64,000 nt of DNA from a virus (IMGVR_UViG_3300031873_001030), one strand, 5' to 3'. Counted from the stretch's first letter, positions 3,090 through 48,161 are shown. The notes: generated by a model not told the origin, from the letters alone. Made by a program: numbers and translations.

Positions 3090-3209
3090 TTTTTAAGTAG
3101 CAACGTGTAATTATTAGATTAGTTAGATATAGAGGAGTGAAGGAAGTAACTAAAGAATCTCGTTTCTTTGGATATTTTCTTTAAGAATAAAGTATAATGG
3201 AGGTGGCAA

Positions 3210-4010: not shown

Positions 4011-4895
4011 ATGGCACTATGGGATAGGGAAGAAAGAAAGCATACGGAAAATAAAGTATTGCCACTCAAGGATATAGTATTTGATGAGAACATATATCCA
4101 AGACAAAGTTCATGGTGGCAAACTTCGTATAAATATGCCGAAGAGATGAAAGCAGGCGCAAGGTTTCCTCCAATCACAGTAGGTTTTGTGAATGGAAGAT
4201 ACGTGCTTGTGGATGGGAAGCATAGGAATGACGCACTTCTGATGAATAAGGAGACACATACATCAGTAGTAGTTCTCTATGGTTACACTTTGGATGAACT
4301 CTATATTGAAGCTGTAAAACTCAATAGGGCTCACGGTGTAGGACTTACTTCTTTCGACAAGGTCAAGATAATCAAGAGACTTGAAGATATGAAATATTCA
4401 TTGGGAGACATAGCCACGATAGTCCAGATTCCTTTGGGAAGCATAGAGAAATTTGTAGCACAGAGGATTACGTTAAATCCATTAGGACAAGTCACAGTAT
4501 TGAAATCTCCTCTCAAGTTTATGGCAGGAGGAACTATAACGATGACTGACGAAGAGCAAGATACTCTAAGTGTGAGGAGTGAGATAAGTCTGGTAAATCA
4601 GATGACACAGATATTCTCAAATCCGAAGATGCTAAGGGTTGATATAACATTCGTTGATGCTATCGAGAAGCTTTACCAACTGATTCAAGATTTCCTCAAA
4701 GAACAGAAAATTTTGAATGGAGCTGGAAATACAATAGAAGAAGTTCCAAAAGAGAAAATATACAAGAAAAGAGGAAGACCTAAGAAAATCAAGACTGAAA
4801 GTGAGACTTCAGAACCAAAGAAAAAGGGAAGACCTAAAGGTTCTAAGAACAAGCTTAAAGAACTTGATGTCAGTAACGTCAAAGAACAAGCATAA
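4011..4895 (+). CDS. ParB/Srx-fold (ParB-like nuclease domain) protein with two C-terminal AT-hooks
   Basis: N-terminal LPLKDIVFDENIYPR ... RFPPITV ... YVLVDGKHR matches the ParB N-domain pattern (DGxHR). C-terminal KKRGRPKK and KKKGRPKGSK are AT-hook cores. Confidence 0.7.
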   Translation: MALWDREERKHTENKVLPLKDIVFDENIYPRQSSWWQTSYKYAEEMKAGARFPPITVGFVNGRYVLVDGKHRNDALLMNKETHTSVVVLYGYTLDELYIEAVKLNRAHGVGLTSFDKVKIIKRLEDMKYSLGDIATIVQIPLGSIEKFVAQRITLNPLGQVTVLKSPLKFMAGGTITMTDEEQDTLSVRSEISLVNQMTQIFSNPKMLRVDITFVDAIEKLYQLIQDFLKEQKILNGAGNTIEEVPKEKIYKKRGRPKKIKTESETSEPKKKGRPKGSKNKLKELDVSNVKEQA

Positions 4896-4944
4896 ATAGT
4901 TAATCAGTTAGACTTTATTTGGAAAGAATGAAGCAGGGTTTAGT

Positions 4945-5015
4945 GACAACGAACCTCAGAGATAGAACTTACTGATTCTTAGAATCAGTTGGTTCTTACT
5001 GCGAGGTTCGTTGTC
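4945..5015 (+). repeat. 71-nt imperfect-hairpin element, copy 1 (candidate structured RNA or DNA cruciform site)
   Basis: Outer 13-bp stem GACAACGAACCTC/GAGGTTCGTTGTC, inner stems AGAAC/GTTCT and ACTGATTCT/AGAATCAGT; 50 nt after the ParB-like stop. Confidence 0.8.
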
Positions 5016-5431
5016 ATAGTTCCTTCCCTCTTCATACTTTCTTTAATATTAGGGAATTTATAAAAACTGTAGGTTTTTATTATGAGATAAGGTTCGGTTG
5101 GGTCAGTTGGGGTGGGTTCCGTTCCGATATGGTATGGTAAGATTATATTTATTGGACGTGGTAGGATAGGGTAGGATGCGATATGGTATTGTTACTTGTT
5201 CCGATATGGTTCGGTGATTTGGGGTTAGGTTAGGTCTGTTCCGATAGGGCAAGGTATGGTATTTTATTTATTCGATACGGTTCGGTTTGGTGGGTTTGGG
5301 TTAGGCAAGATAAGATAGGGTTAGACAAGGTATCTTACTTTTGTATCCGATTGGGTAAGGTCTGGTAGTATTCGGTCCGTTGTGGTTAGGCACGATATGG
5401 TGTGGTAAGGTTTGACATTTATAGTCAGTCA

Positions 5432-5491
5432 TTAACATATGATAAAGAGTTGGACCCAGTGCACGGGTGGCATTCCATTAACATATGTTAA
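5432..5491. repeat. palindrome pair (5432-5445 TTAACATATGATAA with 1 mismatch; 5478-5491 perfect) enclosing a 32-bp GC-rich insert
   Basis: Read directly; insert agagttggacccagtgcacgggtggcattcca is 19/32 G+C. Confidence 0.9.
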
Positions 5492-5525
5492 TGAGAAAAG
5501 ATAAGAAATAATGTAAAATGATAAT

Positions 5526-5798
5526 ATGAAGAAGATAAAGGAAGAATTTTGCTTTCGCAGGAATGATACTAGAACTTCATATGATATGCAGAAAGGCTAT
5601 CTGATATATGGCAAGATTGATGACATTTATAATATCATCACTTACAATCTATTTGAGATGTGGAATACTACAAAGTGTTTTAAAAGGTTTAGGAAATTGT
5701 TCGTCACTACTTCAAATCACGAATGGATACATTATCTTGTTCCAGATATAAAAGATGGAAGTCTGATGAAGAAGATTGAAAATTGGTTTAACTGGTAA
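5526..5798 (+). CDS. hypothetical protein embedded in the GGTNN tract
   Basis: ORF track; bracketed by a 42-bp perfect direct repeat that contains the palindrome. Confidence 0.45.
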   Translation: MKKIKEEFCFRRNDTRTSYDMQKGYLIYGKIDDIYNIITYNLFEMWNTTKCFKRFRKLFVTTSNHEWIHYLVPDIKDGSLMKKIENWFNW

Positions 5799-5822
5799 AA
5801 TGTATCGTTAACCAAAATTCCA

Positions 5823-5836
5823 TTAACATATGTTAA
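5823..5836. repeat. TTAACATATGTTAA palindrome (within the 42-bp direct repeat 5817-5858 = 5472-5513)
   Basis: Read directly. Confidence 0.95.
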
Positions 5837-5881
5837 TGAGAAAAGATAAGAAATAATGAAAATCAAAAAGAGGTAAAAAAA

Positions 5882-5989
5882 ATGAGATACTATTGCCGAG
5901 AACATAAGGAAAGTTTTGAGACTACTGTCTGCTTTCTTCAACATGTTCTTAAGGAACACCATAGCATATTTGACATCACAAGTGAATAG
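5882..5989 (+). CDS. 35-aa Cys/His-containing peptide
   Basis: ATG 5882 lies 45 nt after the palindrome; translation MRYYCREHKESFETTVCFLQHVLKEHHSIFDITSE; below the track cutoff. Confidence 0.3.
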   Translation: MRYYCREHKESFETTVCFLQHVLKEHHSIFDITSE

Positions 5990-6151
5990 ATATTTATGTG
6001 ATGAGGTGGGGTCAAGTCAGGTCGGTTCTGGTTGCGATACTGACCTTATCACACCAAACCTCACCTTACCAGGGTTCGATAAGTTGTGATTTGGTAGGAT
6101 AGGGTAAAGTTATTTATATTTGAAACACGTAATTATATGTCAAGGAAGTCT

Positions 6152-6223
6152 GACAACAAACCTCAGAGTTGGAACTTTCTGGTTCTAAAAAATCACTTAG
6201 TTCTTTCTGCGAGGTTTGTTGTC
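6152..6223 (+). repeat. imperfect-hairpin element, copy 2
   Basis: Outer stem GACAACAAACCTC/GAGGTTTGTTGTC. Confidence 0.8.
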
Positions 6224-6949
6224 TTTGTATCGACTTTATCATTCGGTCAGGTAAGGCGGGTTCAGGTGGGGTATAGTTTCGGTTCGGTATGGTAGTTTGA
6301 CATTTATACGATACGGTAAGGTGAGGTTTGGAAGATAGTCTTTATGATTCGGTAAGGTGGGGTCAGTTGCGATTGTGTGAGGTTTGATTTGGTTTGGTCT
6401 GATTTGGTAGTTTGAGGCAAGGTAAAGTTAATTCCTTTTATATGATAAGGTATGGTCTAATTCGGTCTGGTTTGGTTGGATGGGCTACGTTCCGATAAGG
6501 TTCGGTATGGTAATATGACACTTATACGATTAGGTTCGGTCAGGTAAGGTTGGGTCAAATGCGATTAGGTAAGATGAGGTTCGGTCAGATACGGCAAGAT
6601 ATGGTATAATATTTATTCGGTTAGGTGAGGTCAGTTTAGGTCTGGTCTGATGTAGTTTGGCATGGTAGTATAACACTTATCGGTTTGGTTCGGTATGATG
6701 CGATATGGTCAGATTCGGTTTGATATGGTAGTATGACACTTATTGGTCAGGTTTAGTAGAATATGGTAAGGTTCGGTTCGATACGGTGGGATATGGTCAG
6801 TTAGGATTTGGAAAAGGAGAGAATAGTTTCAAGAAAGAATCAGCCCTTGGGTGAGTCCCTTGAAATGAAAAATGCCGCACCAGAGATGGTGATATTAGGT
6901 AAACTAATATAAATCAAGGTTCGAACCGTCCGTTAGGCAACGGTTCTCT

Positions 6950-7020
6950 GACAACAAACCTCAGAGTTAGAACTTACTGGTTCTTGAAATCAGTTGGTTC
7001 TTTCTGCGAGGTTTGTTGTC
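6950..7020 (+). repeat. imperfect-hairpin element, copy 3
   Basis: Outer stem GACAACAAACCTC/GAGGTTTGTTGTC; preceded by hairpin GAACCGT..ACGGTTC (6923-6946). Confidence 0.8.
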
Positions 7021-7201
7021 TTCCTCCAAAAAATTACTTATTCGATAGGGTAAGGATAGGTATGCTATGTCAGGGTCAGGTTTGGTTAGGTTTGATATGG
7101 TATGGTAAGGTAATTTAATACTTTTGCTTTGGTGCAATATGGTAATATTCGGTAGGGTATAATTCGGTGGGTTCCGTTAAGGTATGGTAAGGATTATATT
7201 T

Positions 7202-7321
7202 ATGAAATACGTATATAGGAATAGAGATGATGAAAGGGAACTTAAATTTGAAGTTCCAGATAGTATGTCAATAGCTGAAGCATTTGAATTTGCAGAAAGG
7301 AAATGCGCCAGCATGGAGTGA
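7202..7321 (+). CDS. 39-aa hypothetical peptide inside the GGTNN tract
   Basis: Only non-repetitive, protein-like composition in this part of the tract (MKYVYRNRDDERELKFEVPDSMSIAEAFEFAERKCASME); weak. Confidence 0.3.
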   Translation: MKYVYRNRDDERELKFEVPDSMSIAEAFEFAERKCASME

Positions 7322-7672
7322 TTATAATTTTTGGTCTGGTAGGGTGCGATTAGGTACGATTGGGTTTGGTCAGATAGGATATGATATGGACTATTGTAAT
7401 TTTCGGTTAGGTGCGGTTAGGTCTGGTTTGGTGCGTTCGAGGTGTGGTCAGATAGGATATGGAACTTTCATTCGTACTTTTCGGTAGGGCATTATTCGGT
7501 CCGATATGGTCTGGTCAATTCCGCTCTGGTTCGGTTAGATAGTGTATGGTGATATATGTTAAGTCGTGGTTTGGTTCGGTCTGGTAGAATGAGGTTTATC
7601 TTTTTTGATAGGCTATCGTTCGGTCTGGTGAGGTATGGTTCGGTAGGGTTCGGCAAGGTTTAATCCTTTTAG

Positions 7673-7787
7673 GAAAGGGTCTTTGATTCATTCCCTTTCT
7701 ATAAAAGATTTATCCCACGTCTTCGGGATTTATCCCTTCTTTCAGAAGGGATTTATATATCACCGAATCTCGTTTTAAACGAGATTC
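7673..7787 (+). promoter_or_regulatory. cluster of four hairpins (7673-7699; 7707-7758 double ATCCC/GGGAT unit; 7765-7787 GAATCTCGTTT/AAACGAGATTC)
   Basis: Inverted repeats read directly. The GATTTATCCC-N6-8-GGGATTTAT unit recurs at 25703 and 43483. Confidence 0.6.
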
Positions 7788-7963
7788 ACAAAGAACTTGT
7801 GGTCGGGTCTGATACGGCAAGGTGTGATACGGTAAGATAAGATTGGGTTATGGTCTGGCAAGGAACTTTTTACTTATATGGTTTGGCACGGTCCATTCCG
7901 TTGCGTTTAGGTGTGGTAAGGCTTGGTATGGTTACGATTTATTTGGCGTAACATATGTAATAC

Positions 7964-15984: not shown

Positions 15985-16499
15985 CTAAGCTTTCGTATCT
16001 TGACTTCGATGAATGTCTCGGCATCGAAAAACTTTCCAAACTTCAGAGGAATCCATATTATCTTCCCTCTTTTTCCCATCTGACCCACCTTACATCTAAA
16101 ACTTATTTCATTTATCATAAAATATATTAGTTTCATTAGAATATAAAGTTTTAAATTCAATTATAATACAGCAAATAGAAGTGACAATTATACCAAACCC
16201 AAGTTGAGTCACTGAAATGAGGATTTATAGTTCAATCCAATCTTTACAATTTCCACAGAAGTCTCCACCACTCTTACAGCTTCCATCATAAAAATTTTTA
16301 CAACTACTGCAGCATCTCAAGTTTTAACCTATTTTTAGCTTCTTCTTCCAACTTACATATTTCATTTATCGTATACATCACAATAACCTCCACATCTTCA
16401 ATCTGACAGCGAGTTTATACATATTATGCCAAAACCAACTGCCTTCATTCTTTCTCGCAAACATATATATTCCAACATATGTTATCAATGACATAATTG

Positions 16500-16775
16500 T
16501 AAACCACAGATTACCAGACCATACCCGAACCTATAAGACCACATCACACCTGAGCGAAAAGTGTTAACCATACCACATCAGACTTTATCATGCCTTACCA
16601 GTCCTTAACATATCGTAACTTACCACAACGTAGCATAAATGACAATCCATATCTTACCACACACCAACATATCTTACCAAAACCCACCCTAACCCATCTA
16701 ACCCAATCATAAATATAATCCCTATCTTACCAAATCCCATCACAACGGACCCTACCAAATCAGACCCCGTTAAAT
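16500..16775 (-). repeat. GGTNN pentanucleotide tract on the minus strand (NNACC on +)
   Basis: 5-nt reading ttacc agacc atacc ... accaa aaccc accct aaccc; lies downstream (sense) of minus-strand gene 16869..17171. Confidence 0.8.
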
Positions 16776-16868: not shown

Positions 16869-17171
16869 TTATCGAATAAAAACGTCGAAAGCTTTTGCCT
16901 TTCGTCCGCTTTTAGTTGAAACTAGACCCTTGAAGACAATTTTCAGTTCCTGACCAATTTTCACTGAACCCATCTGTCTCTCTAAAATCATAGAACCAAA
17001 GACAGTTCTGACTTTTCCAGTGTTGTCTTTGATGTCGTAGACTCTGGACTTACTTCCATCTGGCCTGAAGTAATTTCCATCTCGAATTTGCATGAGAGTT
17101 CCTTCCAGTGAGTCGTCTTCATTTTCGAATCTGAATATTTCTCCACTTGTAGATTGCCAATTTCCTGGCAT
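16869..17171 (-). CDS. hypothetical beta-rich protein (possible OB-like fold; speculative)
   Basis: ORF track; first gene of the minus-strand block. Confidence 0.55.
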   Translation of the reverse strand: MPGNWQSTSGEIFRFENEDDSLEGTLMQIRDGNYFRPDGSKSRVYDIKDNTGKVRTVFGSMILERQMGSVKIGQELKIVFKGLVSTKSGRKAKAFDVFIR

Positions 17172-17440: not shown

Positions 17441-17638
17441 ATGATAATAGACTATGGCAAGTTGAAAGGAAAGAAAGTGAAATTGTTATGCGTATTTGAA
17501 GGTCTGAGTCAGACTATCTATTACGATGGCATAATACTAGATTCATCTGAAGTCAATAAGGTTGTGACCATATCAGATAGATTTAGCAAGACAGTTCACA
17601 TTGATATGGATAGTATAAAACAAGTGGTAGAGTTATGA
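17441..17638 (+). CDS. small beta-rich protein (possibly Sm/KOW-like; speculative)
   Basis: ORF track; AAGGAG upstream. Confidence 0.45.
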   Translation: MIIDYGKLKGKKVKLLCVFEGLSQTIYYDGIILDSSEVNKVVTISDRFSKTVHIDMDSIKQVVEL

Positions 17639-17742: not shown

Positions 17743-18933
17743 ATGACGTTGAAGAATCTTGTAACGCCATTGGAACTTAAGACTCTCTGGGATTCTGAAT
17801 ATTACAAATCAATATTGACAGCTACAGCTAGCAGCTGCCAATTTGGAAGGATAAGAGAACACCAACGTAATAATACATTCAAAGAAATCAGAGCCAATCT
17901 GAATGCTCTGATAGTTGGAGAATATGGAATTGGGAAATCCACAATGTTGGACATTAAGAATGTCCCAATAGTCAGGGCTAATACAGTTTCAGTTGCTGGA
18001 CTAGCTGGAACTACGACAAGAAGTGGGGAACACGTTATTGGAGCTGCATATAAAGCTAATAATAAATTACTAATTATAGATGACGTTGGTAGTGGTGAAA
18101 ATTCTTATATAGATAATTCTGTAAAACGATGCATGAATCTGCTATTGGAACCTCCGCATACTTTTTCACGAATGTTAGGATTTAAGATGAACATTCCTGT
18201 GAAAGAGAAGAAGGGTGGAGCTTGGGTGAAAGGAAGTGAGAATCAGTTTACATTGCGTTCTAAGTTCAGTTGCATCGTAGCTACAACATCAGTTGTAATT
18301 CGAAATACTGATGACAAAGCTTGGATGTCAAGATTCGTACCAGTAAAACTACATGGTAGTGTGGATTACATGTTTGAATTTTTATCTGGTTCTAATCCAT
18401 TTACAATTACTGGTTTGAATCGGAAAGTCAAGTTATTTGAATTTCCAGATTATCTGGAATTCTTGGAATTCTATGAAGAACATTTTCGTGGAAGTCTGTG
18501 GGAGAAAAGCATAATAGAAAAGGAAGATGAAGTCGGTTCTATAGCGAGAAATACTGGTGACTTGGTAAGATTGGCTGCTTTCAATTGCGCTGTCGATGAT
18601 AGAATAAATATAGAATTTGAAGATGCCAAGAAAGTTTTTGATAGGTTCTACAATCAGATATGGTTCAATATCCAAGTTGGACCACTGACTCATGAACAAT
18701 ATAGAGTTCTATTACTTCTCAATAAGAAGTTGACTGAAGATGAGATAGCAGAAACTATACAAAGGTCACAGCCTTACGTATCTAAGATGATAGAGAAATT
18801 TGAAAGTAAGGGAATACTTGTAGACAGAAAAGTTGCGAAAGAAGTTGAAAACTTTAAACAAACTTCATGGGAAAAACTCGAACCACAGCAGACTTTATCA
18901 GAATCTGTAAAGTTAGATGGTAGTCATGAGTGA
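17743..18933 (+). CDS. MCM-like AAA+ ATPase with C-terminal winged helix-turn-helix
   Basis: Walker A VGEYGIGKST, Walker B LLIIDDVG, sensor-1-like CIVATTS, Arg-finger-like MSRF (MCM SRFD), and C-terminal LTEDEIAETIQRSQPYVSKMIEKFESKGIL. Confidence 0.65.
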   Translation: MTLKNLVTPLELKTLWDSEYYKSILTATASSCQFGRIREHQRNNTFKEIRANLNALIVGEYGIGKSTMLDIKNVPIVRANTVSVAGLAGTTTRSGEHVIGAAYKANNKLLIIDDVGSGENSYIDNSVKRCMNLLLEPPHTFSRMLGFKMNIPVKEKKGGAWVKGSENQFTLRSKFSCIVATTSVVIRNTDDKAWMSRFVPVKLHGSVDYMFEFLSGSNPFTITGLNRKVKLFEFPDYLEFLEFYEEHFRGSLWEKSIIEKEDEVGSIARNTGDLVRLAAFNCAVDDRINIEFEDAKKVFDRFYNQIWFNIQVGPLTHEQYRVLLLLNKKLTEDEIAETIQRSQPYVSKMIEKFESKGILVDRKVAKEVENFKQTSWEKLEPQQTLSESVKLDGSHE

Positions 18934-19090
18934 TTATAAAGATAAATTGCATTATAGTGAACGTGATGATAGATATTACACAATGAGTGACTATGAAAAA
19001 AAATATCGACAAACTAAAAAGTACAAGGAATATAGAAAAAAATATCGGAAAAAACTGAAAGAGAAAAGGTTGATGAGAAGTTACAAATGA
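18926..19090 (+). CDS. 54-aa basic Tyr/Lys-rich peptide
   Basis: Overlaps the ATPase stop by 8 nt; YEKKYRQTKKYKEYRKKYRKK; below the track cutoff. Confidence 0.4.
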   Translation: MSDYKDKLHYSERDDRYYTMSDYEKKYRQTKKYKEYRKKYRKKLKEKRLMRSYK

Positions 19091-19236
19091 TATTACAAAA
19101 TCGGCGCGCGCAAGTTTAACTAAAGCTATTAGCTGATGTGATGAGACTACTATGTAGGAGTAATGCTATATGAAGAACTCTAAGTAGTAAAAATAAAAAA
19201 ATTATATAATATATATATTAGAGTATATGAATGAAA

Positions 19237-19452
19237 TCGTTGTTGGAGTTAAGGCGTAGAATGTCTCCGTTGGGGTAATTCATCTAGTCTGTATAGAGTA
19301 GAGGAAGAATATTCCAAATCGCAGAACATAGAGAGAGAGAGAGAGAAAATCTTGACTTCTTGTTTTGCCAAATGGAATATTTTGCTAGTAGTCTATAAAG
19401 ACTAGATGAACAAGGCTAACGGAGACAATTTACGCCTTCTTTCCAATAACGA
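19237..19452. repeat. 216-bp imperfect palindrome (~66-bp arms) centred on a (GA)8 microsatellite
   Basis: Left arm 19237-19304 aligns to the reverse complement of 19385-19452 at roughly three quarters identity by eye. Inner inverted pair AATATTCCA/TGGAATATT. (GA)8 at 19331-19346. Confidence 0.8.
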
Positions 19453-19672
19453 AAAACGCAGTTTTTTTGCCAAAAATGATATTGAAAAAAGCCACTTTTT
19501 CGTTGTTTTTTGAAACAGCACTAAATTCATAGACTAGTAGTAAAAAAAACTCAAATTAAGTATATGCTTCAAAACATACTTCATATGATATAATTTAACG
19601 AAGGATGACATTTCATGCATTGAAGATATTTAAACTTGAAAAACGAAAGTTATCATTAGTTTAAGTGATAAG

Positions 19673-20074
19673 ATGTTGGAAGAAAAACATAAAGGTTCTT
19701 CAAGTTTTTTACTGATTTTGCTTGGAATTTTTATTGGTGTAGCTATTATGTTTTTGATTGGTTTCATTTCAGATTCAAATCCAGATTTTGATTCACCTTC
19801 AGTCAAACTTTTGGGAACTTGGCAGACTTTCATACCAATCAATGGTGTTCAGAATTTATTCACATTCAGTTTTGACAAGAACGCTAGCACAATCATAGCT
19901 TCAGAAACTGCATCAGTCAGTGGAAAATATGAGATTAAAGGTTCAAGTCTGACTATCTTCGATTCCAGCAATCAGACAATTTCAGTTTATACTTATCAAT
20001 TTATTACAGATAACTCTTTGAGTCTGATTCAGTCTGGACAAAATTTAGGAATTATTCTGACTAGATTGGCATAA
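19673..20074 (+). CDS. signal-anchored secreted/membrane protein
   Basis: ORF track; N-terminal hydrophobic FLLILLGIFIGVAIMFLIGFI. Confidence 0.55.
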   Translation: MLEEKHKGSSSFLLILLGIFIGVAIMFLIGFISDSNPDFDSPSVKLLGTWQTFIPINGVQNLFTFSFDKNASTIIASETASVSGKYEIKGSSLTIFDSSNQTISVYTYQFITDNSLSLIQSGQNLGIILTRLA

Positions 20075-21728: not shown

Positions 21729-22961
21729 TTGGAGATGAAAGTGATGAACATAGGTGAAGTTGAAATTGGAAAACCTTGGCAATATAAGGAAAATTCTATT
21801 GGAATTGTTGTTCCACTTTTAAGGAAGAATCAAGTCAAAAGAAATTATAAGACAGTTGAGGAAGTTAAGGAGATGATGAATATCAAGGATACTGGAAATA
21901 TAGACAGTGTTGAAATTTCCTCAAAAGTCAATGAACCAGTTTTTATCAGGAGCGGGACGATGTTTGAAGGGGTTGGAACTCAGAGCAGGACGCCAACAAC
22001 TAGCATTGTCATAATTCCAAATCAACAGCCTATGAAAGTTCCTGTAAAATGCATACATGCTTCTCATCACATATCTTCTGGAAGCAACTTTAAAGTCGCA
22101 GGTAGTATTCCCCACTATATTGGTTATGCAGCTTTTGGACCAAGGGCTAGTCAATCTCGTGTGTGGTCTTCTGTAAGCATGCAAGCAAGTTCTGTAAGCC
22201 ATCATGCTATGCATCTTTCTGACAATCTTATCGATAACGTAAGAAAAATAGAAACTTTTAAGAAAGATATTGGCGAAGCAGTTAAAAACTATCCGATATT
22301 GAAAAATCAAGTTGGTATAGTTGTTCTTGATTTTAACGGGGTTGTTGGTCTTGAGATGTTTGATAATTCTGAATCTTGGGCAGCAGTATGTAAAGACATA
22401 ATCAATAAGTATTCTGACACAATAACACAGCTTGTTGACAGTCCTTTATTTTCATTGAATGAAGAAAGCATAAAACCAAAGATATTGGAATTCTTGAAGA
22501 AGCTGACAGAAGCAAAAGAAGAGATTATCTTTCAAGCAGATGTGATGAAAACAATCTTATTGGAAAATGGAGATATCATTGGAGAATGTACGAGTATTGA
22601 TGGCAGGATGATACATCTCATGGGAATGAAAAAGAAGGATGAGGAAAGGACATATGGTTCAGTTGCTCCAAATAATTTACCATTTACACCACAAAATTGG
22701 ACAACCAGAGGTTCTAACTATTCTGTGCTATCTGCACTTGGAGATGGAAGTAGGAGATTTTCAGAAATAGAGAAAACAACTAAATTATCCCCAGCTACAG
22801 TAAGCAAAAATTTAAGCAAGTTCCATTCTCTTGGATTTATTGACAAGTCAGCAGAAATAATAAACAACAAGGCCCGTGAAGTTTATAGCCTTACAAGCAA
22901 CGGTAAAAATGCATTTTTTACTATGCATGATGTCAGGAAGAAATTGATGAAGCTTGGATAA
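21729..22961 (+). CDS. uncharacterised N-domain fused to a C-terminal wHTH (ArsR/TrmB-like)
   Basis: C-terminal YSVLSALGDGSRRFSEIEKTTKLSPATVSKNLSKFHSLGFI. Confidence 0.6.
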   Translation: MEMKVMNIGEVEIGKPWQYKENSIGIVVPLLRKNQVKRNYKTVEEVKEMMNIKDTGNIDSVEISSKVNEPVFIRSGTMFEGVGTQSRTPTTSIVIIPNQQPMKVPVKCIHASHHISSGSNFKVAGSIPHYIGYAAFGPRASQSRVWSSVSMQASSVSHHAMHLSDNLIDNVRKIETFKKDIGEAVKNYPILKNQVGIVVLDFNGVVGLEMFDNSESWAAVCKDIINKYSDTITQLVDSPLFSLNEESIKPKILEFLKKLTEAKEEIIFQADVMKTILLENGDIIGECTSIDGRMIHLMGMKKKDEERTYGSVAPNNLPFTPQNWTTRGSNYSVLSALGDGSRRFSEIEKTTKLSPATVSKNLSKFHSLGFIDKSAEIINNKAREVYSLTSNGKNAFFTMHDVRKKLMKLG

Positions 22962-24479: not shown

Positions 24480-24527
24480 TGTCAAATTAGAAATGCAATA
24501 CGATTGTTAACAAGAAAGTTAACAAAG

Positions 24528-24598
24528 TCTCACCTGCCAGAATTGCACCAGCATCTACGAGGCTACAGCTCGTTGTTCTACTGTTGAACTAAGGCGAG
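24528..24598 (-). tRNA. tRNA-Tyr (GTA)
   Basis: Hand fold CTCGCCT-TA-GTTC-AACAGTA-GAAC-A-ACGAG-CTGTAGC-CTCGT-AGAT-GCTGG-TGCAATT-CTGGC-AGGTGAG-A; C1-G72 as in archaeal/eukaryal tRNA-Tyr. Confidence 0.75.
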
Positions 24599-24601
24599 TT
24601 G

Positions 24602-24674
24602 TGGGGATGCTGAGATTTGAACTCAGATTATTCGCTTCCAGAGCGAAGGTTCTAACAAGTTATACTACATCCCC
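24602..24674 (-). tRNA. tRNA-Pro (TGG)
   Basis: Acceptor GGGGATG/CATCCCC, anticodon arm TTCGC-TCTGGAA-GCGAA, T arm CTGAG-TTCAAAT-CTCAG. Confidence 0.85.
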
Positions 24675-24677
24675 AAG

Positions 24678-24751
24678 GGAGAATAGAGGGATTTGAACCC
24701 TCTCTAACAAGTTCACAGCTTGACGTGCTCGCCTACTACACCATATTCTCC
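24678..24751 (-). tRNA. tRNA-His (GTG) with genomically encoded G-1
   Basis: G-GAGAATA...TATTCTC-C, D stem GTGT/GCAC, anticodon loop CTGTGAA, T arm GAGGG-TTCAAAT-CCCTC. Confidence 0.8.
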
Positions 24752-25212
24752 ATTTTATTATGTTCTTCTCTATGGCAATTTGCACATAGAAGTTTGCATT
24801 TCTGCAATTCTTTTCGTATCACCTCGAGACTATTATGCCATATTCTGGATATTTCATATTTCTTTTCTCCGTTCATATGATGAAATTCAAGTGCTGCGAA
24901 ACATTTGTTATATCCACATTTTTGACATTTACCTCCAAATTCCATTTTCATAATTTTTGTTTTTTCTTGGTTTTTACGCTTTTGTGCTATATACCACAAA
25001 TGTCTCTGAGGGAGAGATGATTTTTGTTTATGTTGTTTTATATATTTTCTCATATATTCTCTATGATATTTTTTCCTTTTTTCTCTGTTTTCAGGGTTTG
25101 ACAACCAAATTTTCCATCGTTCTTTTTCTTGCTCACGGTGTGATTTTCTATATAATCTATTTATTTCACACAATCGTTCTTTGTTTTTTTCATAATATTT
25201 TTTACTGGTCAT
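24736..25212 (-). CDS. HNH endonuclease with N-terminal basic Tyr/Lys-rich region, inserted in the tRNA cluster
   Basis: CQKCGY...LEFHH...N...CANCHREEH; its 3' end overlaps tRNA-His by 16 nt. Confidence 0.8.
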   Translation of the reverse strand: MTSKKYYEKNKERLCEINRLYRKSHREQEKERWKIWLSNPENREKRKKYHREYMRKYIKQHKQKSSLPQRHLWYIAQKRKNQEKTKIMKMEFGGKCQKCGYNKCFAALEFHHMNGEKKYEISRIWHNSLEVIRKELQKCKLLCANCHREEHNKMENMV

Positions 25213-25255
25213 ATAATGTAATTGTTTAATACCATTTATATTTGTTGTTGAACTA

Positions 25256-25330
25256 CGCTCTGGGCAAGACTCGAACTTGCAATTTCTCCGTTAACAGCGG
25301 AGCGCTTGTACCTGTTTAAGCTGCCAGAGC
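25256..25330 (-). tRNA. tRNA-Asn (GTT)
   Basis: GCTCTGG-CA-GCTT-AAACAGGTAC-AAGC-G-CTCCG-CTGTTAA-CGGAG-AAATT-GCAAG-TTCGAGT-CTTGC-CCAGAGC-G. Confidence 0.85.
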
Positions 25331-25333
25331 AAG

Positions 25334-25437
25334 TACTCCCCGAATGATTCGAACATTCGTCTCTTGGTTTCTCCAAGTTTCAGATTCTTGTTGAAATTAT
25401 CAAAGCCAAGCATCTTTGTCCACTGGACGAGGGGAGT
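25334..25437 (-). tRNA. tRNA-Gln (TTG) with a ~31-nt intron after position 37
   Basis: Acceptor ACTCCCC/GGGGAGT (A1-U72); anticodon stem CTTGG/CCAAG enclosing CTTTGA-[intron]-A; T arm GAATG-TTCGAAT-CATTC. Confidence 0.65.
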
Positions 25438-25466
25438 ATATTGATTGTAGTTCTTTTTAAAAACTA

Positions 25467-25538
25467 TGGACACAAGCGGGAATCGAACTCGCATCTCTTT
25501 CTTGCAAGGGAAGTATCCTACCATTAAACGATTGGCCC
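25467..25538 (-). ncRNA. degenerate tRNA-like element (Ala TGC-like anticodon loop CTTGCAA) with mismatches in the acceptor, anticodon and T stems
   Basis: GGGCCAA...TTGTGTCCA pairs at only 5 of 7 acceptor positions (2 mismatches). Anticodon stem CTTCC/GAAAG and T stem GCGAG/CCCGC each carry an A-C mismatch. Confidence 0.35.
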
Positions 25539-25702: not shown

Positions 25703-25729
25703 GATTTATCCCTCTAACGGGATTTATAT
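25703..25729. promoter_or_regulatory. GATTTATCCC-tctaac-GGGATTTATAT hairpin unit overlapping the XPF stop codon
   Basis: Read directly; same unit as 7707-7758 and 43483-43508. Confidence 0.5.
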
Positions 25730-26358
25730 TTTTCAGTCAATATCTTCTTGATTCTAGTTGAAAGTACGTCTCCTATTCCCTTTGCTTTCTGCAAGTCTTC
25801 CTCACTGGCTAAAAGTACTTTTTCAACAGAACCGAGATTTTCCAACAGCCTTTTGGATATTGTCGAATTTACTCCAGGAATGGAGGAGACTATCTGCTCT
25901 TGTATCTTTGACATTTCTGTCGGCACCTTTTCAAATTTGTATGATACAGTTCTTTTGCTTTCAACTTGCTCTTTTTTCGCAAGATGATATATCATTCTGG
26001 CAGTGTCCATTTTGTCCTTAGTATTTACTATGGAAATGTTGAATCTGATGATTAGACTTGCCATAGCGGCTTTCACAATGTTCACATCTATGCGTTCATT
26101 TGGAAATCCTTCTATGATTATGATGACAATCTTAAAATTGTCCTTCATCCTAGTTGTCTGTTCAAATAACCTTCCATCAAATATTGACGCTACAAAATCT
26201 TGATATGTCTTCCTTTCAATCACTGTCCTATCCGAAACTATGAAGTCTCCAACTTCCAAGAAAGATTCATTCAAGTTGACGTTGGCAAAATTTCTCAGAA
26301 AGTATATCAGCTCTTTTTCCCTGGAATCTGCTGATATCGTGATTTTAAATTCTTCCAT
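25714..26358 (-). CDS. short-form XPF/Hef-type ERCC4 nuclease with C-terminal (HhH)2
   Basis: DSRE...VGDFIV...VIERKTYQDFVASIFDGRLFEQ...IIIIEG; C-terminal IPGVNSTISKRLLENLGS...AKGIGDVLSTRI. Confidence 0.85.
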   Translation of the reverse strand: MEEFKITISADSREKELIYFLRNFANVNLNESFLEVGDFIVSDRTVIERKTYQDFVASIFDGRLFEQTTRMKDNFKIVIIIIEGFPNERIDVNIVKAAMASLIIRFNISIVNTKDKMDTARMIYHLAKKEQVESKRTVSYKFEKVPTEMSKIQEQIVSSIPGVNSTISKRLLENLGSVEKVLLASEEDLQKAKGIGDVLSTRIKKILTEKYKSR

Positions 26359-34623: not shown

Positions 34624-34694
34624 GACAATGAACCTCAGAGTAGGAACCAACTGGAAAGTGGAATCAGCAAGTCATAACTGCGAGGTTCATTGTC
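34624..34694 (+). repeat. imperfect-hairpin element, copy 4
   Basis: Outer stem GACAATGAACCTC/GAGGTTCATTGTC; starts 2 nt after the stop of 33906..34622. Confidence 0.75.
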
Positions 34695-35408: not shown

Positions 35409-35490
35409 TGTGATGAGTTAGGGTCCGATGGGGTAAGTTAGGATATTGTGAGGTCGGATGTGGTATGTTTGGTGAGGTAAGGTATGGTCC
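35409..35490 (+). repeat. short GGTNN tract filling the intergenic gap
   Basis: gttag ggtcc gatgg ggtaa gttag ... ggtga ggtaa ggtat ggtcc gatat ggttt. Confidence 0.7.
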
Positions 35491-35502
35491 GATATGGTTT
35501 AA

Positions 35503-42583: not shown

Positions 42584-43328
42584 TTTGGTACAATTCAATT
42601 GTTCTATTTGGAAAACCAAAAGAATTTGATGTGTTTACTTCTTCATCATTTTGAGGTTCGATGAAAATTCTACCTTTGTCTGTAGTGTTGAATATTATTA
42701 TTGCATGCCCTATTGTGTAATTTTTCCATTCAATATATACTAAGCCAATACTGATGTGTTGTTTAAGAGAATTTAATATGATGTCTCGACTAAAGTCCCA
42801 ACAATTATAAGTTTCATTATATGTGTTTTCATTTGTCTTATCAGTAGCTATGAAATTTTTCATATCATTATATGTTGGGTCTTGAGAATTTTCATAGAAA
42901 AGGTAGTCATTTAAATTCCACGTATTACGATAGAATGTTGTCAAGTTAGTTGTGTTAAAGACTGATATATTTGTTATGTTCAATACTGTCAAATTAGTTG
43001 TGTTAAAGACTGATATATTTGTTATGTTCAATACTGTCAAATTAGTTGTGTTAAAGACTGATATATTTGTTATGTTCAATGTTGTCAATTCTGTTATGTT
43101 CGTTACGTTTAATACTGTGATATTAGTTATGTTAAGAATTTTGATGTTTGATATCGAACTGTTGACTAAATTTATCTTATCGTCTAAAAGAGTTTTTACA
43201 CTGCTTAGTTCATTTTGTGTGGAAGTTAGACTTTTTTGTATTTCAGATGTTTTTTGAATCTGAAAAATTATTGTAATCAAGGTTGCAATAAAAATTGTGG
43301 AAAAGACGAAGATTGTCTTTGAATCCAT
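42573..43328 (-). CDS. membrane-anchored protein: NIT/NTT 16-aa repeats plus a C-terminal Cys-His domain (possible thiol-peptidase/transglutaminase-like core)
   Basis: TM helix near the N-terminus; NITNISVFNTTNLTVL x3; YNCWDF...IGHAIIIF...IEPQNDE. Confidence 0.65.
   Translation of the reverse strand: MDSKTIFVFSTIFIATLITIIFQIQKTSEIQKSLTSTQNELSSVKTLLDDKINLVNSSISNIKILNITNITVLNVTNITELTTLNITNISVFNTTNLTVLNITNISVFNTTNLTVLNITNISVFNTTNLTTFYRNTWNLNDYLFYENSQDPTYNDMKNFIATDKTNENTYNETYNCWDFSRDIILNSLKQHISIGLVYIEWKNYTIGHAIIIFNTTDKGRIFIEPQNDEEVNTSNSFGFPNRTIELYQIIW
42939..43082 (-). repeat. 48-bp tandem repeat x3 (near perfect), with degenerate copies to ~43140, inside CDS 42573..43328
   Basis: Units start at 42939, 42987 and 43035. 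Confidence 0.9.
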
Positions 43329-43919: not shown

Positions 43920-44162
43920 TGTGAGTTGAAGAAAACATGTCACATGGGGAAAAAAGACAGAGAAGGAAAAAAACTAAGAAGCAAAGGCAAAGAAAAAGGA
44001 TGAAAGAGAGGAGAGACAAAGGGAGGTAATCTATGAATGAGATTGACATCCATGAAATGAATTATTTCATCGACATGGTGTCACCAGCTTATCAAGATGA
44101 GTTGTGAAAAAAATGAGATGCGAAAACAATAGGGGTAATTGCCCAATTTGGAGGGTTTTGTA

Positions 44163-47100
44163 ATGGCAAATAGTATTTTTGGTCAGCCTCAGCCAAATCC
44201 ATTTTCACCAGGCACGACATTGCCGTCATCAAATGTAAGTGTGACGCCAAGTATGCCCATTGGTGGATTGACTGTAGGATTAGGAGGAAGTGGAAATGTT
44301 TATTATGGAGGAGCGCCTGCTGGAGGAGTTGGTCAGACTACAACAACAACTGGAGGTCCTGCGATTTATATTCCTCCACAGGAGACTGCAAAAGCAGCAG
44401 AAAAAACAATAACTCCTGCTTTGATTCCTGAAATAAAACCGCCAACTTTAAAAGTTGGTGTCGGCGGATTGGTAGAAGGTTTGGGAAAATCTGGTAATGT
44501 ATATGAAGGTGGTGTGCTTGTTGGAGGTACTACTCCATGGGGTCCTGTAGTTAAGGAAGGTGGTGTCAGTTATGTCCCAACTGGAAGGACAGCTGAAACT
44601 GGAGAGACAATTTATTCTGGAACTCAGATAAGTTCTGCAACACCTATTGGAACTTTTGTGCCTGCAAAGAGAATTGAAATAACTCCACTGATGCCAGAGA
44701 TTAGTGTACAACCAGCTACAGCTGGTGCTATAGGTCTTTCATTTCCTGCAGGTGTTTTGTCTGTAAAATCTGGTCCAGTTGATGTGAGCAAACTTTCTCC
44801 AGATGTGCAGACTGCGTTGGGAAATCTTCAAGGAAAGGTGCAGGCTGAATATCCAGGATTCAAGCTTGCAAGTTGGACTCGTGAAGGTGATGAGCTGAAA
44901 GGTGTTTTGGAACCTGTGAAGTATGTCTCACTTGGAACTGATGTTACGAAAGCGACTGCTGCCATAAAGGATTTGGGATTGAAAGAAGGTGATTATAAAT
45001 TATATACTGGAATTGGTGGGGATTATCAGCTTGTGACTGATAAGGTGTCAAGCCAGAAATACGTGAGTGGTCTTCTTTCCAGTTATTCAGTTATTCCTAT
45101 AACTGGGTATGGACAGTATAGAGGGTCTGATGAGAGGATTGCATTGAAGTTTCTTGATAAGGAAGGTTATATCAAAGATGGTGTGATAAGCAAAGATGTT
45201 CAAGTGATAGGGGATATAGGAGTAGGAGGAACTGGTGCGATGATAGTTTTAAAGGGAAGTACAAAGAGTTCTGAAGATTTGTCAAAGACTTATTTTTCTT
45301 CCTTGACTGAAGTGCAGAAGGAAGATACTGCGATGGCAAGAGGAGAGTTGCAGATTGCTCAGGAAAAGGAACTTTTGAGACAACCTGGTATGAGTGTTGA
45401 AAAGGGAGCTGCTTGGTGGAATTTGAATGTTGGTCCTTATATGCTTTCTCCAAAGGACCCTCTTGGTCTGAGGAGTGCTTACATAGGAGTTGAAGGTTTG
45501 GTAAAAGGAACTCCTGTCAGTGTCATACAAAAGGACATAGAAGCTAGCAGGCTTTCTGCAGAACAGGAATTTCTTCAGAGAAAATATATGGGAGAGTCTT
45601 GGACTAAATCATTATGGGAAGCTCCTGCAACGCAGCCTTTGAAAGTTGCTGCTACTTGGTATGGCGGTGGTCTTTTGTTGGGAGGTGCTGCTGGAGTTCT
45701 TAAAACTGCTGAAGTAGGTGCTGGTATAGTATCAAAAGCTCCATGGCTTGCAACTACAGGAAGAGTTATTTCAACTGCTGGAAAAGTTGCGACAAGTGTT
45801 CCAGGACAAGTTGTAATTGGTTCAGGATTGTATGGTTTTACTGAAAGAGGAAATATAATGGCACTTGCAAAAGGAGGTGTTCCAAGAGACATTGTTCCTG
45901 GAATGATTTTTGACGCATCACAATTTGGATTTGCATATGGCGGTGCAGCTGCAGGTTTTCCAGTTGGTTATTCTAGAGGTGCTGGATTGGGTTATGCTTT
46001 CAAGCCTGGTGCATTGCCTCCATCTGAAACATTCGTGGCAGAAATCAGAGGGACTGGAGTATCTGGAATTCCAGGTGAATTGCAAGGATTGAAACTTGGG
46101 ACAAGGGTTGCTGGAGAAGTTCCAAAGGGTTTTGTTCCAAAAGGATTTAGTGAAGGTGTTCCTTATAGGGCGTTCTTGCAGGAGGGTGTGACAGTTACAA
46201 GAGCTGGAGAAGTTGTACCTTCTGGGACTTTGATGCCAACTATTGCAGAAATGGAACCTGCAAAACCTTTGATGCAGAGGATTGCCACTGCAATGACAAA
46301 GCCAAGCGAATTGATTCCTAAGATGCTTCCTGGAGGACCTACTGTTGAAGCTCCTTTTCTTGAATCAATCAGATATGGTGAAGAAAAGATAGCGAAAGGA
46401 GGAACTAAGGATATTTATGCTGCAGGTTATCAGCCAGGAACTACAATATGGTCAAGATTGAAGATGCCTGTTGAAGGAGCGCAGTATGGGATTGCTGAAG
46501 GTTTTAAGACTGTTACAGCTGAGAGTCCTCTTGCTTCGTTGACAGAAAAATACACTACAAGGATGGCATTGAGAGCTACTGGCGCTCCTATTGAAGCGGG
46601 AGATGTTGTTCCAGTGAAAATAATGGCAAAGACAGATTTTATTGTAAATGATGAAGGGATAGCTGCGATGTTGAAATCTGGAAAGAATCTTGCAGATATT
46701 GAAAAATTGAAAGGTGCTGATATAATACAGCGTGATATTGAATTTGCAGATAAGCCTGCTGTAAGGTACACTAGATTTATTGATAAGGAAACTGGAAAAT
46801 CTTTGGTTGTGTTGAAGCAGACTGCAGCTCCTACAATAGAGGAAGTTGTTGCTTTGGCAGAGGAAGGAAAGACTTTGATAAAACCTGAATATGTTGGAGG
46901 AAAGGTTGCAGGCTATAGTATAAGAGGTACTGAAATAGTTGGAGAGGGGAAAGAATTTGCAGGAGGAGTGCGTTATAAAAAGGGTGTTGAAGTAGTTGGT
47001 AAGGAACAAGTGACAGGAATAGCTCTTGATGATAAGACATTTAACGCATTGATGGATAAATATGGAAACAAGATATTGAGGGTTTCATCTCCGACAACTG

Positions 47101-48161
47101 CAAGAGATATAGCAGCTCTTGAGGCAAGTGCTGAAGGCGGTGTCACAAGAGGGACAAGCGAGCTTTCTGTCATCAGATACGTCTCAAGGGGACAATTTGA
47201 AGATTATCTGAAATCAAGAACTGGAGTAAGTAGTGTGAAGGGTGGTGAATATCCTCCTACTGAAGCTGGAACTTTTGGAACTGTTTCAATTGAAAGGCCT
47301 GAAGTTCCTAGACTTCCTAAGGTACCAGAAGAAAAAATAGTTCCACCTGAAGCTGGAGTTTCAAAAGGAGGTCTTATGTCTGAAGGCGAGAGAGTGATGT
47401 CAATTGCTCTTTCAGAAGAAGTTGGAAGACCAGCAGTCGGATTGGAAGAACGTCCTTTGAGATTCACTGAAAAGTATTTTGGGATGCAAACTCCATCCTT
47501 TGGAGTGACATCTGTTGAAGGTGCAGGGATAATAAGTTCTGACATAGCCATTGCTACAAAGTCTGCTGTTGGAATGCGTGAACAATTAGTTGCAGCTCCA
47601 GAGATTAGTGTTAGAACTATGTTGAAACCATCTGCAATTATGACTAGTGTAAATATTGAGGATGTGTTGCTTAAGATTTCTGAAAGTATTTTAGGCAAGT
47701 TGCAGCCAAGGATAAGTACTGATATCACTGATGTAGGAATGAGGATTGAACCGATAACTTCTCCTATTGTTACAACTAAGGTTACAACTGCTGTTGATAT
47801 AACACCTATACCTATGAATTTGATAGCTCCTATTACAACTTTTAAAGGACCAATTGTGACTGTCAGACCTCCAATAATACCTCCTGGTGGTGGGGGCGGT
47901 GGTGGAGAAGGTAAAAAACCTGAAAGAGAATATTTTGGATATTTCGGTCGTAAAAAAGCAGGAAAGAGAATTTTAAGTTCTGATTTGTTTTCTGTTGCTG
48001 TGTCTCAGGCTGCGTATGGAAAAGCCACTACTCCAAAGTTTAGTAGGAAAGAAGTTTCTGAACTTGAGAGCAGAGGTTTGATAAGAGTTCCTACAGCTGA
48101 GATATCTGGAATCCCAAGTTCTGGAGAATTATTGAAAAGATTGTTAGGAGGTAGAAAATGA
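44163..48161 (+). CDS. 1332-aa Gly/Val/Ala/Pro/Thr-rich protein of unknown function
   Basis: Uninterrupted ORF; GGAGGG precedes ATG 44163; no TM helix seen; G7 run and basic tail near the C-terminus. Confidence 0.8.
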   Translation: MANSIFGQPQPNPFSPGTTLPSSNVSVTPSMPIGGLTVGLGGSGNVYYGGAPAGGVGQTTTTTGGPAIYIPPQETAKAAEKTITPALIPEIKPPTLKVGVGGLVEGLGKSGNVYEGGVLVGGTTPWGPVVKEGGVSYVPTGRTAETGETIYSGTQISSATPIGTFVPAKRIEITPLMPEISVQPATAGAIGLSFPAGVLSVKSGPVDVSKLSPDVQTALGNLQGKVQAEYPGFKLASWTREGDELKGVLEPVKYVSLGTDVTKATAAIKDLGLKEGDYKLYTGIGGDYQLVTDKVSSQKYVSGLLSSYSVIPITGYGQYRGSDERIALKFLDKEGYIKDGVISKDVQVIGDIGVGGTGAMIVLKGSTKSSEDLSKTYFSSLTEVQKEDTAMARGELQIAQEKELLRQPGMSVEKGAAWWNLNVGPYMLSPKDPLGLRSAYIGVEGLVKGTPVSVIQKDIEASRLSAEQEFLQRKYMGESWTKSLWEAPATQPLKVAATWYGGGLLLGGAAGVLKTAEVGAGIVSKAPWLATTGRVISTAGKVATSVPGQVVIGSGLYGFTERGNIMALAKGGVPRDIVPGMIFDASQFGFAYGGAAAGFPVGYSRGAGLGYAFKPGALPPSETFVAEIRGTGVSGIPGELQGLKLGTRVAGEVPKGFVPKGFSEGVPYRAFLQEGVTVTRAGEVVPSGTLMPTIAEMEPAKPLMQRIATAMTKPSELIPKMLPGGPTVEAPFLESIRYGEEKIAKGGTKDIYAAGYQPGTTIWSRLKMPVEGAQYGIAEGFKTVTAESPLASLTEKYTTRMALRATGAPIEAGDVVPVKIMAKTDFIVNDEGIAAMLKSGKNLADIEKLKGADIIQRDIEFADKPAVRYTRFIDKETGKSLVVLKQTAAPTIEEVVALAEEGKTLIKPEYVGGKVAGYSIRGTEIVGEGKEFAGGVRYKKGVEVVGKEQVTGIALDDKTFNALMDKYGNKILRVSSPTTARDIAALEASAEGGVTRGTSELSVIRYVSRGQFEDYLKSRTGVSSVKGGEYPPTEAGTFGTVSIERPEVPRLPKVPEEKIVPPEAGVSKGGLMSEGERVMSIALSEEVGRPAVGLEERPLRFTEKYFGMQTPSFGVTSVEGAGIISSDIAIATKSAVGMREQLVAAPEISVRTMLKPSAIMTSVNIEDVLLKISESILGKLQPRISTDITDVGMRIEPITSPIVTTKVTTAVDITPIPMNLIAPITTFKGPIVTVRPPIIPPGGGGGGGEGKKPEREYFGYFGRKKAGKRILSSDLFSVAVSQAAYGKATTPKFSRKEVSELESRGLIRVPTAEISGIPSSGELLKRLLGGRK

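Follow-up and report, generated by a model that had tools for sequence, protein, structure and literature searches.

A 216-bp imperfect palindrome downstream of a gene for a small MCM-like helicase, a candidate replication origin in a probable archaeal mobile element

The window, that is the whole stretch of 64,000 nucleotides analysed in this work, carries on its plus strand the mini-MCM gene (17743-18933), identified by Pfam, by a family profile and by an AlphaFold model. The gene encodes a protein of 396 amino acids in which a Walker A motif (G62-K65-S66), a Walker B motif (D113) and an SRF arginine finger (R197) are followed, at about residues 315-362, by a C-terminal winged helix. Searched alone against Pfam, the protein gives a weak match to the MCM P-loop domain and, over residues 315-362, a weak match to a MarR/TrmB winged helix. 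An exhaustive HMMER search assigns it to a family which comprises 135 clusters when grouped at 50% identity, with members mostly 330-400 amino acids long. In a 55-member alignment of this family the Walker A (GxGKS/T), Walker B (IDE) and SRF arginine-finger motifs and the C-terminal helix-turn-helix are conserved, and 12 of the 55 members have a Pfam MCM match. The profile built from the 55 sequences matches MCM4 and archaeal MCM in the PDB (E 3.4e-12 to 2.6e-11). The AF2 model of mini-MCM obtained with the 55-sequence alignment reaches a pLDDT of 88.6, as against just 30 with an alignment of three sequences, and all of its top 50 Foldseek matches in the PDB are MCM subunits. Since profile matches, AlphaFold model and Foldseek matches all lead to MCM, the protein is an MCM AAA+ motor joined to a winged helix and devoid of the MCM N-terminal domain. 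A preliminary description of this DNA had placed a palindrome just downstream of an MCM-like operon, and the MCM-like nature of 17743-18933 is confirmed. There is no primase domain in the mini-MCM protein, and Orc1/Cdc6 is not found among its top PDB sequence matches or its top 50 structure matches.

The end of the mini-MCM gene is overlapped by a small ORF on the same strand (18917-19090 in the ORF list), encoding a basic, K/R/Y-rich protein of 57 amino acids without a Pfam match; with this ORF the replication operon probably ends. A K/R-rich ORF overlapping the end of the mini-MCM gene is present also in the relative L002. Upstream of mini-MCM are two divergent genes, of 100 amino acids (16869-17171, minus strand) and of 65 amino acids (17441-17638, plus strand), both lacking a Pfam match. 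Their order is kept in L002, L003 and L012 (there a gene of 69 amino acids), and they probably belong to the replication module.

The element is probably an archaeal mobile element. This assignment is made because of three features: the ERCC4 nuclease encoded at 25714-26358 on the minus strand, which matches the Hef nuclease model with E 3.6e-58; the tblastn matches of this nuclease, the sole ones being Methanobacteriales viruses; and the start codon of mini-MCM, which is located 24 nt past a TATATAAG box, a spacing that would fit a leaderless archaeal transcript of the gene. Among the proteins of the element that were tested no phage hallmark gene was recognised.

A perfect 14-bp palindrome, TTAACATATGTTAA, is present in 14 copies in the window (700, 988, 1575, 1613, 2314, 2359, 2425, 2491, 5478, 5823, 12361, 12398, 24416 and 24466), often paired 38-66 nt apart. 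It is absent from 19091-19672, and in L003 it is found at 3933, 11 nt past the mini-MCM stop codon. The ParB-like gene at 4011-4895 sits amid the copies, and these could act as parS-like centromere sites or as an operator for some global regulator. The plus strand also carries four 73-nt hairpins (4945-5015, 6152-6223, 6950-7020 and 34624-34694), whose stems vary by compensatory pairs (GACAACGAACC/GGTTCGTTGTC, GACAACAAACC/GGTTTGTTGTC and GACAATGAACC/GGTTCATTGTC) and two of which start 49 and 2 nt past stop codons; a role as 3'-end or terminator hairpins is conceivable, as is a REP-like nature. Degenerate short GGT-rich repeats such as GGTTCGGT, GGTAAGGT and GGTTAGGT occupy long stretches of the plus strand that are poor in ORFs (5080-5420, 5990-6820, 7030-7200, 7320-7960 and about 35430-35500). 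An ACC-rich mirror version precedes the divergent replication promoter, at 16400-16760. Directly after the ParB-like gene comes the most extensive block of these repeats, about 3 kb long (4896-7963), and the blocks could represent a centromere-like array or an alternative origin.

Outside these families there is a tandem repeat at 42939-43088, intergenic or antisense, with 3.1 copies of a 48-bp unit at 97% identity. A tRNA cluster (24527-25538, minus strand), which runs against the prevailing gene direction and is flanked by two TTAACATATGTTAA sites, comprises Tyr-GTA, Pro-TGG, His-GTG and Asn-GTT and a fifth tRNA (25468-25538) detected by Rfam alone. Genes for glycosyltransferases and methyltransferases are clustered at 36.7-41.7 kb. 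A 1340 amino acid ORF without a family match (44139-48161) precedes a giant ORF of 3752 amino acids (49389-60647) with DUF285/BspA-like repeats, in which the DNA shows a periodicity of 75/150 nt at 51805-52903.

Past the replication operon lies the gene-free region 19091-19672, which had been given as 580 bp and measures 582 nt; the only ORF of at least 50 amino acids in it is spurious, antisense and overlaps the next gene. The same 582 nt are present with 100% identity in the Logan assembly L001 (run SRR9651338), a run which may itself be the source of the window. The palindrome starts 304 nt past the mini-MCM stop codon and 147 nt past the last ORF of the operon. On its left it is abutted by an AT-rich tract (19183-19236, 80-90% AT in the AT profile), which contains the TATA-like string TTATATAA (19202-19209) and which could, from its composition, serve as a DNA-unwinding element. 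On its right a second inverted repeat found by repeat search (19445-19507, plus strand), with 23-nt arms of 74% complementarity, overlaps the end of the right arm, includes a T7 run (19462-19468) and folds weakly better than shuffles (z -1.95). The pair AACGAAAAA/TTTTTCGTT at 19448 and 19496 and the isolated GGCGCGCGC at 19103 are where the preliminary description had them, and an 18-mer, TTTTCGTTGTTTTTTGAA, at 19497-19514 on the plus strand matches exactly a stretch of the non-coding region of L016. The minimum of the cumulative GC skew is at 17.0-17.5 kb, about 2 kb from the palindrome, and tracks the switch in gene orientation. A scan for sigma-70 promoters and intrinsic terminators, with a model unsuited to an archaeal host, gave none above shuffle expectation.

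The palindrome itself is an imperfect inverted repeat of 216 bp, the longest local inverted repeat of the 64-kb window in the repeat search. Its left arm (19237-19328, plus strand) and right arm (19361-19452, minus strand) are of 92 nt each, gapless and 76% complementary, and are separated by a non-palindromic spacer of 32 nt (19329-19360), which is 60-70% AT in the AT profile and carries the (GA)8 run at 19331-19346 already seen before. The arms are longer than the 68 nt originally claimed, and the match of about three quarters proposed for 19237-19304 against 19385-19452 amounts to 52 of 68 positions, or 76%. The 22 non-Watson-Crick positions between the arms are clustered rather than scattered: they form blocks, equal in length on both sides and without any indel, which alternate with the perfectly conserved boxes TCGTT.TTGGA, AAGGCGTA.A.TGTCTCCGTT, TTCATCTAGTCT.TATAGA and AATATTCCA. 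The outermost 11-12 nt of the arms (TCGTTgTTGGA) are well kept, the longest perfect stem is 12 bp, and 24% of the positions are mismatched. The blocks GTCTCCGTT and TTCATCTAGTCT, described earlier as identical between the arms, are indeed so and occur nowhere else in the window; the inner pair AATATTCCA/TGGAATATT is likewise present, its halves starting at 19308 and 19373, 56 nt apart.

Each arm contains one box reading inward, AGGCGTAGAAT on the left (19252-19262, plus strand) and AGGCGTAAATT on the right (19427-19437, minus strand). Both boxes contain the 7-mer AGGCGTA, which has just these two copies in 64 kb, at 19252 (plus strand) and 19431 (minus strand). Each arm also holds a sub-palindrome, TAGTCT-GTAT-AGAGTA in the left arm (19285-19300) and TAGTCT-ATAA-AGACTA in the right arm (19389-19404). 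The hexamer TAGTCT is found 5 times in the 582-nt region, as compared with 32 times in 64 kb, and all three CTAGTCT sites of the window fall in this region.

Folding as RNA, one of the checks proposed in the preliminary description, gives a result far beyond that of shuffled sequences. The plus strand of the palindrome reaches -108.7 kcal/mol (z -13.9) with a shuffle mean of -47.1, and none of 200 shuffles is as good; as a baseline, 230-nt windows over the whole 64 kb average -44.8 on the plus strand, with a standard deviation of 10. The minus strand folds at -85.3 kcal/mol (z -12.2), and with DNA parameters the value is -54.2 kcal/mol (z -11.6).

Another of the proposed checks, a search for further copies as would befit a MITE, returned none in the window or in the databases scanned. 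Allowing up to 3 mismatches, no second copy of an arm exists in the 64 kb. A full 28-base arm had 0 matches in IMG/VR, and two more arm patterns had 3 and 0 matches there, the three being on contigs of 38-52% GC which encode no mini-MCM. One of these three, L024, agrees with the left arm at 24 of 26 nt, but lacks an inverted second copy and the match is apparently in coding DNA; like the other two it was judged to be chance. With an 18-base arm pattern, 7 matches were obtained from JGI metagenome contigs and a single one from GTDB genomes, each of them isolated and limited to the pattern, and these are chance matches. Neither the 582-nt region nor the mini-MCM protein gave a similarity match when searched against INPHARED phages, PLSDB plasmids and IMG/VR (the last by protein). 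In Rfam the tRNAs are the sole matches of the window above the gathering threshold, and a permissive scan of 19000-19700 returned MIR4208 at 30.7 bits with a gathering threshold of 140, a meaningless match to a miRNA precursor. The palindrome is genuine, statistically extreme and single-copy.

A word-based search found two close relatives of mini-MCM (75% and 71% identity), on short contigs which end 106 and 41 nt past the gene; the same type of search gave no relatives for the 133 amino acid gene downstream. For L002 (SRR12594517), L003 (JGI 3300013133) and L012, the nearest relatives, the contig stops 41-262 nt past the mini-MCM gene, and a homologous palindrome is present on no contig of a relative. 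The idea that the palindrome causes assembly breaks in relatives was rejected: the L003 contig stops within a copy of the dispersed 14-bp palindrome and those of L019 and L020 begin with tandem iterons, so the breaks say nothing specific about the palindrome. The mini-MCM of L012 is 38% identical, and the 262 nt past its gene have no strong fold (z -0.68).

Short motifs are shared with the distant relatives at the equivalent place. The sole AGGCGTA of L012 is located 121 nt past the mini-MCM gene, within an 11-mer identical to AGGCGTAGAAT of the left arm, and the downstream region of L012 is also the best nhmmer match of the arms (E = 2), top in about 126 kb searched. In L016, whose mini-MCM is 32% identical, non-coding DNA dense in direct and inverted repeats extends for 1 kb past the gene. 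The sole AGGCGTA copies of L016 lie in this DNA, at 3080 and 3109 on the minus strand, and a one-mismatch version, AGGCGTTAG, is at 2742 on the plus strand, inward-facing with respect to the minus strand copies and about 330 bp away. As boxes, the sites of L016 are AGGCGTAAGAT twice on the minus strand and AGGCGTTAGCT on the plus strand, facing inward as in the window; L016 shows separated inverted boxes and not a hairpin. The 18-mer TTTTCGTTGTTTTTTGAA is found there at 3167-3184 on the opposite strand, past the mini-MCM gene, and in both the window and L016 it adjoins a common CCAAAAATG. By shuffling, a GC-rich 7-mer common to the regions of the window, L012 and L016 has a p of 0.045, and the window and L016 have 28 9-mers in common in their non-coding DNA, with 13.6 expected (p 0.006), while an alignment of the whole region with the non-coding DNA of L016 scores no better than shuffles. 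The sharing consists of short motifs of modest significance and is suggestive, not strong.

Iteron and palindrome arrays are present just upstream of the mini-MCM gene in L022 and L019. Together with L016, these arrays mean that in several relatives the mini-MCM gene stands beside repeat-rich non-coding DNA. At the start of the L019 contig (1-66) there are 9-bp TTACTTTGT iterons, AACTTTGTTTA repeats are common to L019 and L022, and TATAAC-N3-GTTATA palindromes are common to L016 (2640-3460) and L022 (2300-2700). These repeat sets suggest lineage-specific origin motifs which change along with the helicase.

The palindrome is tentatively read as the core of a replication origin, the site where the adjacent mini-MCM would assemble, and our rough probability for this reading is 45%. 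It is the SaPI-like layout together with the pRN1-like position of the stem-loop, both compared below, which leads to it. In its favour, the palindrome lies in a gene-free region directly past the replication operon, and the architecture of the neighbouring protein suits a self-loading initiator-helicase. AGGCGTA is present once per arm, facing inward, and its copies in L012 and L016 are likewise past mini-MCM. The 9-mers in common with L016 and the repeat-rich DNA beside the gene in other relatives also speak for it. The AT-rich tract abuts the palindrome, the minimum of GC skew and the switch of gene orientation are some 2 kb away, and the palindrome has a single copy. Furthermore, as the mismatches of the arms come in equal blocks without indel, the boxes keep their spacing, as is expected of protein sites. 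Against the origin, the centre between the arms is just 60-70% AT, and the GC-skew minimum is at 17.0-17.5 kb instead of 19.3 kb and follows gene orientation. The window has other large repeat-rich non-coding regions, at 4.9-7.9 kb and 16.2-16.9 kb, which could hold the origin; moreover, the motifs in common with relatives are short and of modest significance, the 262 nt of L012 are without a strong fold, the arms match L012 at no better than E = 2 and the L016 alignment stays at shuffle level.

An origin had been proposed before in the form of a cruciform. The origin part of this proposal is now the best supported reading, but not its cruciform part, since with 24% mismatch and a longest perfect stem of 12 bp spontaneous extrusion is judged unlikely; the data favour putative symmetric protein-binding boxes beside an initiator/helicase gene. 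A protelomerase tel site or hairpin-telomere junction was also considered and rejected, the centre being a 32-nt non-palindromic (GA)8 spacer and the flanks being unrelated genes.

Three other explanations were weighed. The plus strand might be transcribed into a long-hairpin RNA, either as a non-coding RNA of about 230 nt extending from the TATA-like string (19202-19209) to the T7 run (19462-19468) or as a 3'-UTR hairpin of the replication operon acting as terminator, stabiliser or replication primer; taken jointly we consider the two variants unlikely. The extreme plus strand fold speaks for such an RNA, and it is 23 kcal/mol better than that of the minus strand, with 7 G.U pairs compared to 1. 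Yet once corrected for composition the G.U asymmetry is not significant (p 0.086), and the plus strand folds better genome-wide (-44.8 vs -36.7). By archaeal rules the hairpin would begin about 4 nt past the predicted transcription start and about 27 nt past the TATA-like box, and would end 10 nt before the T7 run, a possible archaeal terminator, but TATA-like strings are unavoidable in a tract of 90% AT. No oligo-T is present between the stop codon of the operon (19090) and 19462, so read-through from the operon would take in the hairpin. The element has its four-copy family of 73-nt plus strand hairpins with compensatory stem changes, two of them directly past stop codons, and post-gene hairpins are therefore a habit of this genome. 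On the other side, the best Rfam match is the MIR4208 one already dismissed, and what the relatives share is short boxes 175-330 bp apart and not a continuous hairpin. If real, a near-perfect hairpin RNA of 230 nt would be unusual for archaeal mobile elements.

The MITE of the preliminary description is very improbable, as is any other palindromic insertion of a selfish kind or an inverted duplication in decay, which would be without function for the element. Its size, its non-coding and intergenic nature and its long terminal inverted repeats would be in keeping with it, but a second arm copy is missing from the 64 kb and the matches in JGI, GTDB and IMG/VR are chance at most. In addition, the flanks have in common a trivial AAA alone, which is not a convincing target-site duplication, the mismatches are in blocks between perfectly kept boxes and not scattered, and AGGCGTA recurs at the equivalent locus of distant relatives. 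It is similarly improbable that the sub-palindromes (TAGTCT-N4-AGACTA type, 104 bp apart) are operators bound by dimeric winged-helix regulators with no role in initiation. They are of the size of MarR-type operators, AGTCTATATAAGACT, which resembles the right-arm sub-palindrome, is present in L003 in the promoter region upstream of the replication operon, and two genes in the vicinity, 17743-18933 and 21729-22961, code for winged-helix proteins. However, the next promoter-like element follows 220-340 nt past the sites, the operon which they would regulate ends before them, and the 92-nt arms would be left unexplained. Initiators often autoregulate via origin-like sites, and operator use is compatible with the origin reading too.

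If the palindrome is an origin core, its use can be envisaged as follows. The winged helix of mini-MCM would recognise the boxes mirrored on the arms (AAGGCGTAnAnTGTCTCCGTT, TTCATCTAGTCTnTATAGA and AATATTCCA), and a pair of helicase rings would then be loaded face to face, at a distance of about 175 bp. The strands would separate either at the central (GA)8 run or within the adjoining left-hand tract of 80-90% AT, with the rings travelling away from each other. Each strand, once single-stranded, could form a long hairpin, a possible aid to loading or priming. The palindrome, the fact that it is unique, the nature of the protein encoded next to it and the motifs in common with relatives are observed, whereas binding, loading and melting are inferred. 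The complete scheme, in which an MCM without N-terminal domain would itself recognise the palindrome and load there, with head-to-head rings set by mirrored AGGCGTA-type boxes and transcription of the hairpin possibly helping, is more doubtful.

To form a double hexamer at origins, MCM helicases normally depend on dedicated loaders (ORC/Cdc6, Cdt1) as well as on an N-terminal domain of their own. The scheme, if true, would amount to one-protein, ORC/Cdc6-free loading of an MCM double hexamer in an uncultivated archaeal mobile element. The family of MCM motor plus winged helix, with its approximately 135 clusters, would, if paired with a cis site, offer a very small system in which to study ring loading and opening. 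An origin at this place would also provide a replicon module for an uncultivated, probably archaeal lineage of elements which has no genetic tools. Under either reading the target is a precise one, of about 220 bp and one protein. To our knowledge no origin has been described for the mini-MCM family.

Among known systems, the layout of SaPIs, the pathogenicity islands of Staphylococcus aureus, is close to what is seen here. SaPI Rep is a self-loading AAA+ helicase with a C-terminal winged helix, and its ori is immediately downstream of the rep ORF (PMC9371898). The SaPI ori has repeats on both sides in opposite directions, at which two hexamers are thought to load, and its recognition units are iterons of 5-6 nt, 6-12 in number, around a central AT-rich region (PMC9371898). 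The palindrome of the window similarly adjoins the gene of an AAA+ helicase with a C-terminal winged helix. In distinction to SaPIs, each arm has one inward AGGCGTA plus other mirrored boxes, and not multiple short iterons per side, and L016 has 1 + 2 inward-facing boxes. The central AT-rich region of SaPIs is not reproduced, the centre of the window palindrome being (GA)8 with 60-70% AT and the AT-rich tract lying outside the left arm. Two arms of 92 nt with several longer boxes, a helicase of the MCM clade and a probably archaeal host are further differences.

In pRN1 a stem-loop of about 100 nt downstream of the rep gene is required for replication, and the replication protein combines a prim-pol, an SF3 helicase and a C-terminal winged helix (PMC4234260). 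The structure of this stem-loop is kept among relatives whereas its sequence is not, and the Bordetella phage BIP-1 has a stem-loop similar to that of the pRN family of Sulfolobus plasmids (PMC4234260). The window shares with pRN1 a large stem-loop in non-coding DNA downstream of a replication gene for a helicase with a winged helix. It differs from it in that the palindrome is of 216 bp, with a stem about twice as long, and in that mini-MCM is an MCM-type AAA+ protein without a primase domain.

Archaeal chromosomal oriC regions have inverted ORB elements beside orc1/cdc6, a gene for an AAA+ protein with a winged helix, and MCM is there the helicase that is loaded; the ORB dyad consensus is of the TTCCA-N-TGGAA type, and in origins of the oriC type the AT-rich element is central. 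The window is alike in having inverted boxes beside a replication gene for an AAA+ and winged-helix protein. However, its neighbouring gene is MCM-like and not Orc1/Cdc6, the boxes do not enclose an AT-rich unwinding element, and inspection of the arms by eye for a contiguous TTCCA-N-TGGAA dyad revealed none. MITEs and palindromic repeats, such as Correia, ERIC and the archaeal MITEs, come in many dispersed copies with target-site duplications. The palindrome is like them in being short, non-coding, foldable into a long hairpin and bordered by terminal inverted repeats, and differs from them in that no dispersed copy and no target-site duplication was found for it.

Divergent MCM-family replication proteins are carried by other mobile elements as well, the MCM-like helicases of SCCmec (Cch), of Thaumarchaeota elements and of the Methanococcales pT26-2 plasmids being examples (PMC6972569). 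Mini-MCM resembles SCCmec Cch and the MCM-like helicase of pT26-2 in this respect, and is distinct from these helicases in that its family, of about 350-400 amino acids, is without the N-terminal domain and has canonical MCMs as best PDB matches. On evidence that is circumstantial, the palindrome is best explained as an initiator-adjacent origin with inverted recognition sites, a known layout which would here be that of a mini-MCM replicon.
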